Shown here: positions 6,813 to 14,295 of the stretch, in pieces | Layout: each line of letters starts with the position of its first letter | Numbering within the stretch: the first letter of the stretch is position 1 | Assembly: GCA_903825355.1 (NCBI GenBank) | Contig: CAIKAH010000008.1 | Span: 12,048-76,047, forward strand | Source of the DNA: an uncultured bacterium | Lineage (GTDB): Bacteria; Babelota; Babeliae; Babelales; RVW-14 | DNA: 64,000 nt | Direction: 5' to 3' | Made by a program: the position numbers and the translations under genes | Notes under the pieces: generated by a model | Databases searched by the model: none | What the model was told of the DNA's origin: nothing | What the model saw: the letters and a program-made list of their open reading frames with translations, nothing else

Positions 6813-8423
6813 TCAATTCAAGATCTCCACCCGTTCGGTTGGAAACTCATAACTACCATCCAGCACAAACCGCACATTATTCAGCGAGACGGTGCAGGTG
6901 CCATCGGTACAATTAATTTTTGTACCACTCAGGCCGGTAATTACCATATTTTCTAAGAGCAGCGCTGATCCACTACCACTAATCATTAACCCGCCATGAT
7001 CACCCAAGGCAAGCGTGTGGTTATTCCCATTGATGGCACACTGACCGTTAAACGTCATGGTTGTATTAAGATCCTGATCAAATGCAAACGTCATTGCCGT
7101 CTGATCACCAAAAATCAGCGAAGCGCCTGATCCAATATCAAGGTATGATGGAGAAAAGTATTCTAGTAATGCGTTTTGAATCACTGCATCTTGCCCAGCC
7201 GCAACATTTATCAGCGGCTGAGAAGCTTTGGAGAACAGGAGCGTAAAGGTATTGCCATCAAGCGTAGCACTGCTATCAAAATACAGCTGGCGGTTTGGAT
7301 GCACGACGGTAAGCGCATCAAGGCTGGTGTTGCCGGTGATATGCTGGCTGCCTTGTGTTGGCGCATTCACTCGACGAATCACGCCATTGTTCAATGAAAT
7401 AACATGCTTGTTATTTGGGTCACTGCCAATAGCTGGCGTAATATTTTGCTGGTCAGCAAAAGAGAGCGTGTCGTACTGCAACGAGCTACGGTCAACGGTC
7501 ATTGACCCTTGCTGTGCCAGCGTTAAAATTTTATCTGCCGTAACAATCATTGTTTGGCCATCAACATACAAGCCACCTGTGGTGACGGTATAATTATCAC
7601 TCAGCTCTAGAACCATGTTTGCAAAGCGCACTTCAGACGAATCGTCAGCGAGCACGATGCTGCCATCTTGCACACCACGCAGCACAAAGTTGTGCATGGC
7701 AAGCGAGGTATTTGGGTGTATATTCAGCACGCCGCCACCCGTAAGATCAAGCACTCCGCCGTTACCAGCAATAATGCCATCACCATCAAATGTCCAGGTG
7801 CTATTTAATACAATATTATTAGTAAAACTTACATCTTGCGCATCTTGAAGCACCAAGTCACCACCAGAAACAATGTCCACCGGCCCGCTAATCAGCAGCT
7901 GTTGACCATTAAGGTTGATGGTGCCATTGTAGGGAAACACCCCATTGGTGAAAACTAGTTGGCTAGAAAGCGTTGTCGTCTCACCATTCAGATCAACATA
8001 CGCATTGAGAGAGCCACTCACAGGGGCGCCTTGCACGGTGTCAGCAATACCAGGCATAGTGGTAGGGATAGAGGCCATGCCGTTAGGAAACACGCCACTA
8101 AAATTGCCGCCACCATTTGGCACACGCAGCCCATCAACACTCATCTCTAAGAGCAAGTTGTTTGGGACACTAATTTTGCCATTTTTTACTTTGGGGGTTT
8201 TTTTGCTCGTTGTACCTCGCACCCCACGGCTAGCTATTGCAATATTGTTGCCGTAATAAAGTGACCCGCCGCCAAGATCAATTGAGTCTGCGCCATTAAC
8301 AGAATCAAGCAGTGCGCTGCCAGAAATTTGTATGGTTGAGCTTGAAGAGCCAGAGATAATCTTTGCTTGAGCGCAACCATACCCCGCACAAGCAAATAGT
8401 ATGCATATATTTATTATTTTCAT
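6813..8423 (-). CDS. secreted beta-solenoid-like repeat protein, mid-size paralog (536 aa from Met23; ORF extends to 8489)
   Basis: Met23 gives a canonical signal peptide, MKIINICILFACAGYGCAQA. Family modules TWTFDGDGIIAGNGGVLDLTGG...FVLRGV (7674-7796) and MTFNGQCAINGNNHTLALGD...MVITGLSG (6924-7058). Collinear with residues about 190-590 of the 721-aa paralog. Confidence 0.8.
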   Translation of the reverse strand: MKIINICILFACAGYGCAQAKIISGSSSSTIQISGSALLDSVNGADSIDLGGGSLYYGNNIAIASRGVRGTTSKKTPKVKNGKISVPNNLLLEMSVDGLRVPNGGGNFSGVFPNGMASIPTTMPGIADTVQGAPVSGSLNAYVDLNGETTTLSSQLVFTNGVFPYNGTINLNGQQLLISGPVDIVSGGDLVLQDAQDVSFTNNIVLNSTWTFDGDGIIAGNGGVLDLTGGGVLNIHPNTSLAMHNFVLRGVQDGSIVLADDSSEVRFANMVLELSDNYTVTTGGLYVDGQTMIVTADKILTLAQQGSMTVDRSSLQYDTLSFADQQNITPAIGSDPNNKHVISLNNGVIRRVNAPTQGSQHITGNTSLDALTVVHPNRQLYFDSSATLDGNTFTLLFSKASQPLINVAAGQDAVIQNALLEYFSPSYLDIGSGASLIFGDQTAMTFAFDQDLNTTMTFNGQCAINGNNHTLALGDHGGLMISGSGSALLLENMVITGLSGTKINCTDGTCTVSLNNVRFVLDGSYEFPTERVEILN

Positions 8424-8508
8424 AACCTGACTTTCATCATTGCACTTGGCAAAAGAGCAGTATCCGCTTACAGCGCGGACACTGCTCATAAATTGCTAAT
8501 TCGCCGGC

Positions 8509-13200: not shown

Positions 13201-14295
13201 GGTAATACTGCCGCTACCACCAGCAGGCACAATAACAGTACCTGGATTTGTTACAGCACCCATTGGGTCAATCCACAACGTAGTACCATCAACAATCAAG
13301 CTACCGTTATCACCGACAATAAAATTATTGCTTCCAAGCCCTAATACCGTTGGTCCTTGCACAAGCAGTTGACCACTAAGCGTGTACTGGTTATCAAATT
13401 GCAATGTAGTGCTTGATGTTTTTACAATAGCTGAAGTGTCAACAAAACCCAACGCACCAGATCCATCACCATCACCACTACCAATCCCTTTGACCACAAT
13501 ATTATTAAGCTGTAACGCAGAAGATAGCCCAACAAAAAGTGCTCCGCCGCTTGAGAGATCAAGCACACAGCCTTTGCCGTTAATCACGTTGTTACCATTG
13601 CCACCACTAAGCGGACCTGCAAAATTCCATTGACCAGAAAGATGTAGCGACCCGTTCAAGGTAAGATCGAGTGCTTGATAAAAAGCAAGATTACCATCCC
13701 ATAGACCAGTGTATGTGCTGCCAAGATCAAGACGGCGATTGTTGAGCAGAACAACCCCGTCACCAACAAGACGAACATTGTCTGCTAGCGCAAGATTATC
13801 TGCTAGTGAAAGAACCCCACCATGCATCATAATATCTTGCCCTAAAACACTTTGTATATTCAATGTAAGCCCAGCGTTGTCATTATGAAGCACTATTGGA
13901 GCAGCAAAAGAAGGTTGACCCGAAATGGTATTTTCACCAAAAACAGTCATGCCTTGTAATGTAGTTCCTGGCTCTACGTAAAAACTACCACCTCCATACA
14001 ACTTCAGAGAATCAGTACCAGATGGATCAAAAGACCCCGTTAGTCGAGCATCAAGACCACGTGAACTCAATACCCCATTATCAAAAGCAACTGGTGCGCC
14101 ACTAACAACCCCTCCTGACAGCAACTCCAACGTACCGTCAATACTCATGTTGCTAGAAGTAATATTTAACTGTGTGCCAGATGCAATACTGATCTTGGCA
14201 TCTTTACTACCAAAATCTAAACTTGCTTTTAACCCGCTACAAGTCGTGCAAAGCAGCAAACTTGCGAGCAGAAGCACGCTATGGACTCTCTTCAT
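10204..14295 (-). CDS. giant secreted beta-solenoid-like repeat protein (1363 aa), founding member of the paralog cluster
   Basis: Strong Shine-Dalgarno (GAAGGAGGAG) before the ATG. Signal peptide MKRVHSVLLLASLLLCTTCSG. N-terminal about 460 aa collinear with the 721/558-aa paralogs (QWNFAGPLSGGNGNNVINGKGCVLDLSSGG...NIVVKGIGSG at 13480-13629). Lys/Arg-rich linker at residues about 768-867. Distinct G/N/V-rich C-terminal half. Confidence 0.85.
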   Translation of the reverse strand: MKRVHSVLLLASLLLCTTCSGLKASLDFGSKDAKISIASGTQLNITSSNMSIDGTLELLSGGVVSGAPVAFDNGVLSSRGLDARLTGSFDPSGTDSLKLYGGGSFYVEPGTTLQGMTVFGENTISGQPSFAAPIVLHNDNAGLTLNIQSVLGQDIMMHGGVLSLADNLALADNVRLVGDGVVLLNNRRLDLGSTYTGLWDGNLAFYQALDLTLNGSLHLSGQWNFAGPLSGGNGNNVINGKGCVLDLSSGGALFVGLSSALQLNNIVVKGIGSGDGDGSGALGFVDTSAIVKTSSTTLQFDNQYTLSGQLLVQGPTVLGLGSNNFIVGDNGSLIVDGTTLWIDPMGAVTNPGTVIVPAGGSGSITYLNGGTIKFAQNHGLSTFQLVSNTLTNTNIVLDSSVTLDPGQRLVVSGQVSIDGNGSYIEFMDPNHSQLILQPGSTLTLKNIEFRNLKSNTLDLRATATDIAVAQGTNPVDETKNAFSSARIKINQNVEWKLDQDITFTNGTIEVVNTDAETGVLNVFVMSSEKTPKTFYVAPLLDPFGGITLDHVQTFSLNHNTLQLENVTFRGLRSVQAMVDDVASPAIALSGNASIDQDAGLPTGVRAVDIAAITNNIDIFVENENNRLMIRNSVPASEAAQIQASNNATIALPTYTEFILNNNIYFGDSPINHLMVSFSTTQTTQPMVTITSDPGIQLTSANGIAHLEFTDQNVMLNLARSGAFSIDSNGMLSYNNLFIQNFPIQQLANDIVTSSVALGGAGMDASFVRSPKYIKRHKRVNTLQLKRIAEGNVRVPTRKAIKNSKKNEPVLVAGRVTKRSKKSPQAVAASKVHANVLSAKSYLHDLDEKRAKTRQAVIDELAPRAATRSVEGVVANVLQPAFYSPAIAGLSVSTAILNATQIQTAPFTGGMTVINGTVGGYDATANSYRGFRALAGTNVLGQGATLYFYDTQELNGDGNAARLSFQGGTDSAPNLMVVGSPAVTSNNAVLTIDCTADSLSGLGLAQNTNLEIRVVGNGQLKLGGTLVLPDGCNVRITQDRTAKAAEPVVLLDGFNVQFMGADATRARFIVDAAVAFGSGSNGLRVTGVGSYIIGENADFAPSTNMLIFGSDVPEHGDQNGVNIIIDKGARVNLGAGTAINSRYGQFNYFINSIIDLNGGVLAMNSRGTTTLPANGFVNAVVFGKDGGINFTLGAGDAAGKLVIGHNVRRGGGIAPSNLNVPGAATPLPIAWDGRKGQFTTDGTGQVRFVDLEAGYDKSVTGVLANPDALKVYGSLQAGALALPAIQQNAGFSNTVYVNGDRTAVRRADGLVVAQLPAGASVSAEAADGSGVGGSDANGNPFNIDMANQKDLNGVGVTFTEADRV

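Follow-up and report, generated by a model that had tools for sequence, protein, structure and literature searches.

The locus described here raises the question of what an outer-membrane barrel protein does when its gene lies directly behind that of a giant protein with a signal peptide. The window, a 64,000-nucleotide stretch of contig CAIKAH010000008.1 from an uncultured bacterium of the Babelales, encodes such a giant (1363 residues), the barrel protein (559 residues) and smaller paralogs of the giant. An earlier note on this DNA had seen in these genes a tight operon following the logic of two-partner secretion (TpsA/TpsB) or of an usher, or else a distinct passenger/barrel pairing. The giant and barrel genes were found to constitute a conserved two-gene module specific to the Dependentiae (TM6). 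The barrel may be a dedicated outer-membrane translocator or anchor, similar to FapF and to type V secretion, for a phylum-specific family of beta-solenoid proteins, a reading to which we give an even chance; its cargo would be the giant and, probably, the paralogs. This reading is favored because of the linkage of the two genes, the FapF-like fold of the barrel, a conserved Pro-Thr-Gly (PTG) loop, a natural fusion of the two families and the cargo-like traits of the giant and its relatives.

Loci were collected from the gene neighborhoods of barrel homologs and from a scan of GTDB species genomes, and were annotated by BLAST and phmmer against the proteins of the window. In 18 of the 21 testable Dependentiae loci, the gene immediately upstream of the barrel gene, in the same orientation, encodes a homolog of the giant. 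The pair is kept in loci L019, L022 and L023 despite a barrel that is around 25% identical or is recovered by phmmer at E values of 1e-25 to 1e-34, and also where the ldh and ribosomal-operon neighbors are gone or inverted (L007, L009, L016, L019, L022 and L023). The two genes are separated by 8–68 nt in all but one of 17 loci, the exception being L018 with a gap of 191 nt. Paralogs downstream of the barrel gene are common, although not universal, since no family member follows it in L007 or L009, and in L007 the inverted ribosomal operon comes next. In L016 two giant genes are placed in tandem upstream of the barrel gene (1602-9484).

A direct connection between both families is provided by a distant relative, protein P0144 (807 aa), which is composed of a signal peptide, a domain of the paralog family (~350 aa), a basic helix of ~27 residues and the barrel. 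Its ~350-aa domain matches many members of the paralog family with E values of 1e-7 to 8e-10, and the contig that carries its gene (33.7 kb, no Ns) encodes another barrel protein ahead of it and four more family proteins behind it. This order of parts is that of an autotransporter and ties the barrel to the paralog family.

Inspection of the junctions defined the limits of the module. The three minus-strand reading frames were found exactly where the earlier note had placed them (Table 1), the longest version of the third one being 6813..8489 (558 aa). A strong Shine-Dalgarno sequence, AAGGAGGAG, lies immediately 5' of the giant ATG (14295). The 15-nt gap between the giant and barrel genes was also found, and it is purine-rich (AGAAGTGAGAAAAGG). 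The functional gap may be 24 nt, because the database protein P0001, 100% identical to the barrel protein, has 556 aa and the aligned homologs all begin at the second ATG (10179), with an AAGGA 8 nt upstream of this codon at ideal spacing. At either length this junction is too short for a promoter or a terminator, and both genes appear to be co-transcribed and are probably translationally coupled.

The second junction is different. The signal peptide of the third protein begins at ATG 8423, in accordance with the earlier note, and a 60%-identical ortholog in L001 begins at the equivalent point; the third gene likely starts there, and therefore the junction measures 85 nt instead of 19 nt. It contains a hairpin with a perfect 13-bp stem (8455-8487, minus strand) and a 7-nt loop, followed by UUUUG, with the ATG at 8489 falling in the first base pair region of the stem. 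The minimum free energy (MFE) of this hairpin has a z-score of -4.66 and none of 200 shuffled sequences folded as well; with only four U after its stem, it escaped a consensus terminator scan. Strong GC-rich hairpins, defined across loci by a free energy of -18 kcal/mol or lower with shuffle calibration applied to the window hairpin only, are placed directly 3' of the barrel gene in 12 of 17 loci, usually with a perfect stem of 10–14 bp, and in L006 the barrel gene is followed by a classic terminator with a T-run. Since these hairpins follow the barrel gene, the conserved unit comprises the giant and the barrel, and the hairpin would end or attenuate their common transcript. The absence of terminator-like hairpins claimed for both gaps is thus correct for the first one only, and the tight three-gene operon is reduced to its first two members, the paralog being separated from them by the hairpin-bearing spacer and missing in two of the loci.

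The barrel protein starts with a signal peptide (residues 1–26), followed by a basic segment and a helix (residues 27–72) and by a conserved motif, G-x-[YF]-A-D-L-Y-K-S-P-A-W, at residues 73–95 before the first strand; the barrel proper (residues 96–559, ~465 aa) ends in ...NYDF. The family alignment (A1) showed a variable N-terminus and a well-conserved body, including the stretches ELGGSAAGLGD and PTGKK..KLW[AS]PDLGNGGFTE, with a C-terminal Phe in all 29 aligned sequences. A profile search of the full library recovered 423 representative clusters at E ≤ 1e-3 and 284 at E ≤ 1e-30. No Pfam or NCBIfam family, POTRA included, matched the barrel protein or its 28 homologs, and the family profile retrieved only low-complexity noise from the PDB sequences.

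The AlphaFold2 model calculated with alignment A1 (mean predicted local distance difference test score, pLDDT, 78.3; predicted TM-score, pTM, 0.72) consists of a signal helix, a disordered basic stretch, a helix at residues 42–72 and then 13–15 beta segments as assigned by DSSP, with three long loop inserts among them. It agrees with the basic helical N-terminus lacking POTRA domains that had been noticed before. FapF was the first match of this model in the PDB with Foldseek (E 1.5e-12), with a TM-score normalised to the target (TMt) of 0.75–0.78, and the COG4313 channel Pput2725 gave values of 0.77–0.79. Lower values were obtained for the beta-domains of the autotransporters NalP, EspP, BrkA and Hbp (~0.5), for FadL (0.32–0.38) and for BamA (0.15–0.21), and no general porin appeared among the top 50 matches. 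The modeled barrel is thus of the FapF/COG4313/autotransporter structural class. A FadL channel (14-stranded, with a hatch) and a 16- or 18-stranded trimeric porin were rejected on these values and on the lack of any Pfam match. The earlier note had set against its own proposal an ordinary porin or FadL-type channel with homologs never linked to this family; the model is neither and the homologs are linked elsewhere. Its distinct passenger/barrel pairing is sustained by the linkage in other genomes, the class of the barrel and the P0144 fusion.

Mean-field coevolution on 155 barrel-family sequences was used for the strand count and for the position of helix 42–72, and several known hairpins were recovered. 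In this analysis residues 303–322 form one strand, paired with residues 211–230; therefore residues 330–339 would be strand 5 and residues 362–370 strand 6, and the PTG...PDLGNGG loop would consequently connect these two on the outer side. Right after strand 330–339, the loop has an invariant Pro340 and a nearly invariant Thr341 (PTGKK). The pre-barrel motif is placed against the periplasmic turns, at the periplasmic rim.

The N-terminal extension ranges from 17 to 627 aa across the family (median 134, in 55 sequences with a locatable motif), with ~50% charged residues and a net positive charge in 50 of 52 sequences. Enormous extensions rich in Lys, Glu and Arg were seen in P0068, P0025, P0092, P0081 and P0103, from other metagenomes, the longest one measured being ~630 aa and that of P0025 being built from KEHKVKEHKVK-type repeats. 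As a single helix, the longest ones would far exceed the width of the periplasm.

The paralogy between the giant and the 558-aa protein (p558) proposed in the earlier note was confirmed, as residues 28–466 of the giant match p558 (E 8e-15) and also p721 (E 3e-31). The other comparisons gave E values of 3e-65 (p558 with p721), 6e-27 (p373 with p324) and 5e-5 (p558 with p373). These five genes, all between positions 75 and 14295, are the only members of the family in the window, which contains a single barrel gene. Their products show cargo-like traits: each has an N-terminal signal peptide, none has a barrel of its own, all are encoded within 14 kb of the barrel gene, and the giants diverge faster than the barrel protein (44% against 58% and 28% against 41% identity in the same genomes).

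The full-length alignment of 16 giants (A2) defined a Sec signal peptide (residues 1–24), an N-terminal family domain (~25–760), a highly conserved segment (~660–770) ending in PIKQQS..GIDxSFxR, a linker rich in Lys and Arg (~770–865) and a C-terminal all-beta region of about 450 aa (~940–1363). The linker is found at the same place in all 16 sequences, although its sequence is variable. An AlphaFold2 model of residues 164–1363 (pLDDT 63) showed all-beta domains of short strands at both sides of the disordered or helical linker, where the pLDDT falls below 50 and a long helix is predicted at residues 823–860. The underlying alignment was shallow (12 sequences) because the word-indexed homolog search, queried with the giant alone and with the profile of 16 sequences, yielded no more than 8–9 proteins. 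Foldseek gave no match for this model at E ≤ 1e-3, and the weak top matches were nearly all right-handed beta-helices (PL6 lyases, antigen 43, polygalacturonases and SRRP). The beta-helical exoprotein of the earlier note is therefore consistent with the all-beta secondary structure and with the type of these weak matches, none of which is significant; a beta-helix or beta-solenoid is a plausible, not a demonstrated, fold for the modeled giant. No Pfam or NCBIfam family was matched above threshold by any of the seven proteins encoded from 75 to 14295 or by the 16 giants, a weak match of p324 to Pectate_lyase_5 (PF20585, E 0.0077) being below the cut-off, and the giant-family profile also retrieved only low-complexity noise from the PDB sequences. 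A possible twin-arginine (Tat) signal in p373 (TRRG) was rejected because it is not conserved among orthologs, and a lipobox in the giant (LLLC) because it is non-canonical.

Many of the smaller paralogs, of different subfamilies, share the motif ..GNG....D[LI].[IV]...GA.[IL]....G...Y.N a few residues from the C-terminus. It is present in the products of 5441-6562 and 2410-3384 and in orthologs in L001, L003, L006, L011, L013 and L016, and it may serve as a cap or for targeting. In the distant lineage of L021 (5565-13975), proteins of 1259, 1526 and more than 1600 aa are encoded after the barrel genes and combine paralog-family domains with WD40/beta-propeller regions, one of them with a faint ice-binding-like match; the paralog family is therefore modular.

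According to the favored reading, the giant and the smaller paralogs would cross the inner membrane through Sec, for which their signal peptides are seen in the sequence, and would arrive at the barrel unfolded. The fold, the linkage and the fusion suggest that the barrel moves them across the outer membrane and may also anchor the giant, by analogy with FapF for the Fap amyloid subunits and with the 12-stranded domain in type V secretion. Folding into beta-solenoids would then take place on the cell surface, where fast variation and expansion of the paralog cluster would occur. The charged extension would be periplasmic, as in FapF, and may capture the substrate or gate the pore.

Several observations weigh against this scheme. 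The giant is not directly upstream in three loci: L006, with no giant, has a barrel in an 806-aa form followed by paralogs, L021 has two barrel genes in tandem, and L025 is a short contig. P0144 is the sole passenger-barrel fusion among 165 family proteins. The number of strands is compatible with 12 or 14 by coevolution and with the 13–15 segments of the model, coevolution gave no orientation signal for helix 42–72 (Spearman ~0), and the solenoid fold of the giant lacks statistical support. Net-basic segments are poor substrates for autotransporter-type barrels, which argues against export of the extension itself. The barrel fold is common to COG4313 uptake channels and is thus, taken alone, no sign of export, and the two GspD secretins encoded in TM6 genomes (PMC4776705) make a type II route conceivable for the paralogs. 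These last points lead to the main rival explanation, that of an uptake channel or of the major general outer-membrane protein of these bacteria, for example a COG4313-like channel for hydrophobic or lipid molecules. Its adjacency to the giant would only reflect that both are abundant envelope proteins expressed near ribosomal operons, and the giant would travel otherwise (by type II secretion or in vesicles) or stay in the periplasm. This possibility, which we place well short of an even chance, is kept alive by the COG4313 channel, which equals FapF in its fit to the model (TMt 0.79), and by the need of a parasite to import lipids, Chromulinavorax having no lipid synthesis and a heavy import (PMC6561590). 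The barrel is also far more conserved than the giant, as a housekeeping channel would be, and the locus stands beside rpoA, L17 and ldh in most genomes. However, the adjacency of giant and barrel outlasts these neighbors in six loci, the intergenic gaps are short, the terminator follows the barrel gene and not the giant gene, and P0144 joins a paralog-type domain to the barrel. In addition, the Pfam family of COG4313 (PF13557, Phenol_MetA_deg) was matched by none of 29 members at E ≤ 5, for which membership was rejected, and the long charged N-terminal extension is absent from COG4313 channels.

A more intimate association can also be considered, in which the giant and the barrel form a stable complex, a "split autotransporter", with the basic helical linker of the giant held in the barrel pore; the barrel would then be an anchor for one partner and not a general channel for the whole family. 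The central linker and the second domain are found only in giants, which are also the only family members whose genes are consistently coupled to that of the barrel. Sequence conservation in the giants peaks immediately before the linker, an arrangement that recalls the autochaperone and linker of type Va passengers; the barrel is similar to the 12-stranded domains of autotransporters, and P0144 has its parts in the order passenger, basic helix, barrel. On the other hand, no known system stably threads a separate polypeptide through a 12-stranded barrel, the paralogs devoid of linker would need another route, and the linker itself was predicted at very low confidence; the complex seems rather improbable. 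A wider form of this idea, a phylum-wide and undescribed system in which a trans-encoded FapF-like barrel translocates the giant, holds it by its linker through the pore and also serves a fast-evolving family for host interaction, is similarly doubtful. Two-partner secretion and the chaperone-usher system are supported at this locus only by the adjacency of genes for a large repeat-rich exoprotein and a barrel, and are extremely improbable. No POTRA, ShlB/Omp85, TPS-domain, usher or PapD-like match was obtained in 29 barrel proteins or 16 giants, Bac_surface_Ag was likewise not matched by the 29 barrel proteins, and the BamA type of barrel fits the model poorly with respect to FapF and COG4313 (see above). 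Instead of POTRA domains, the modeled N-terminus has a single helix after the disordered basic stretch. The TPS domain (Haemagg_act) was found in none of the 16 giants, that of the window included, a lone Fil_haemagg match in one of them having an E value of 0.15. Neither the usher (PF00577) nor a PapD-like chaperone is encoded in any protein from 75 to 14295, and the barrel model fits barrels of the 12-strand class instead of the plugged, 24-stranded usher. Membership of either system, as the earlier note had contemplated, was consequently discarded.

Table 1. Coordinates in the window of the giant-barrel module, its paralogs and associated elements
Feature	Position	Strand	Basis
Promoter-like site upstream of the giant gene, TTTACA-18 nt-TACACT (low confidence)	14357..14386	-	Consensus scan, 9/12 matches
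Giant gene, 1363 aa	10204..14295	-	Open reading frame
K/R-rich low-complexity linker within the giant, ~aa 770-865	11701..11988	-	Alignment of 16 giants
Giant-barrel junction, 15 nt	10189..10203	-	Purine-rich, ribosome-binding-site-like
Outer-membrane barrel gene, 559 aa	8509..10188	-	AlphaFold2 model, Foldseek, family alignment
Charged net-basic N-terminal extension of the barrel protein, including predicted helix 42-72	9973..10110	-	
Terminator/attenuator-like hairpin just after the barrel gene	8450..8487	-	Folding with shuffles
Mid-size paralog p558, start corrected to the signal-peptide ATG 8423	6813..8423	-	
Paralog p373, subfamily common to p324	5441..6562	-	Sequence comparison
Paralog p324	2410..3384	-	Sequence comparison
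Paralog p721, true start probably near aa 40	75..2240	-	L001 ortholog aligns from aa 40

The rpoA-L17 end of the ribosomal-protein operon, dcd and ldh come immediately before the giant/barrel region, whose neighbors in the window (GC content ~40–48%) are the paralog family, ldh, dcd and a protein similar to ubiquitin C-terminal hydrolases (UCH). The gene for the latter (581 aa, 3603-5348, plus strand) is surrounded by the paralog genes and runs in the opposite direction, and its product combines a RanBP-type zinc finger (E 2e-5) with a weak UCH match; its positional counterpart in L001/L002 (BLAST E 1.7e-4) carries the UCH domain PF00443, making the 581-aa protein a candidate eukaryote-like deubiquitinase effector. 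From p558 to p373 the spacer (6626-6754) is occupied by a GC-rich palindromic element of ~130 nt (MFE z = -5.1), of which a second copy is found in the spacer between p721 and p324 (2288-2405). Fragments are placed between ldh and dcd (15427-15441 and 15591-15613). The element also recurs in a related metagenome-assembled genome (L008, 4234-4289) and looks like an intergenic repeat of the repetitive extragenic palindrome (REP) or miniature inverted-repeat transposable element (MITE) type.

All named relatives of the proteins studied here come from metagenome-assembled genomes of Candidatus Dependentiae, TM6 or Babeliales, a few of which are automatically labeled otherwise, for instance as "uncultured Pseudomonadota". 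The Dependentiae are widespread and live as obligate parasites of protists. Signal peptides are present on up to 44% of their proteins (PMC6561590), and the outer-membrane routes described for them are restricted to Sec plus a type II/type IV-pilus-like apparatus (PMC4776705); two genome papers on the phylum mention only these systems and the many proteins with signal peptides (PMC6561590, PMC4776705). Full-text searches of the literature retrieved no description of this locus or of the giant or barrel family. The module is conserved and syntenic across the phylum, neither family is detectably similar in sequence to known families, and both would need new family definitions, none of the ~423 representative barrel clusters being annotated. 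If the favored reading is true, the module would be a testable candidate for the surface placement of large variable proteins in Dependentiae.

Comparison with known systems places the locus at some distance from each of them. It resembles two-partner secretion (type Vb) in that the gene of a large exoprotein adjoins that of its own barrel, whereas the TpsB transporter combines POTRA domains with a 16-stranded Omp85 barrel and TpsA starts with a TPS domain, none of which is present here. With type Va autotransporters it shares a barrel of the 12-stranded class and, in P0144 only, a passenger-type domain, a helix and a barrel in one chain; the chlamydial Pmp families offer a biological analogy, with all-beta, probably solenoid cargo and clustered paralogs in an intracellular bacterium. 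In contrast, passenger and barrel are encoded here by separate genes, in the window and in 164 of the 165 family proteins, no PF03797 or Pmp-repeat match was obtained, and the giant has a second large domain after its linker; classical autotransporter membership was rejected on the separate genes and the lack of PF03797. The COG4313 channel Pput2725 (PDB 4rl8) fits the barrel model as well as FapF, but COG4313 proteins are small uptake channels (~300 aa) with a short N-terminal plug helix and a different gene context, unlike the 559-aa protein with its long charged extension.

The closest parallel is FapF (PDB 5o65), the channel of the Pseudomonas Fap functional-amyloid system, a 12-stranded plugged barrel that exports unfolded, Sec-delivered amyloid subunits and shows the order signal peptide, N-terminal periplasmic helix, linker and barrel, with conserved PTG motifs in the beta5-beta6 loop (PMC5557850). 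The two proteins differ in several respects. No sequence similarity was detected with the family profile against the PDB sequences (E ≤ 10) or in Pfam, the barrel region is longer here (~465 against ~320 aa, with long loop inserts), and the highly charged, net-basic extension of very variable length contrasts with the defined trimeric coiled coil of FapF. Neither FapA/B/C/D/E homologs nor a C39 peptidase are encoded here, the presumed cargo consists of giant solenoid proteins instead of small amyloid subunits, and the hosts are Dependentiae and Pseudomonadota, respectively. Nevertheless, FapF is the best structural match of the barrel model and has the same order of parts, its gene is likewise separate from those of Sec-exported, repeat-rich beta substrates in the same cluster, and the P-T-G at the loop after strand 5 is conserved in both, a parallel to be taken as a lead and not as proof of homology. 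If the favored reading is true, cargo of a kind different from that of FapF and of type V systems would widen the FapF-type principle of a barrel acting in trans from the small amyloid subunits of Pseudomonas to giant solenoid proteins in a distant phylum.

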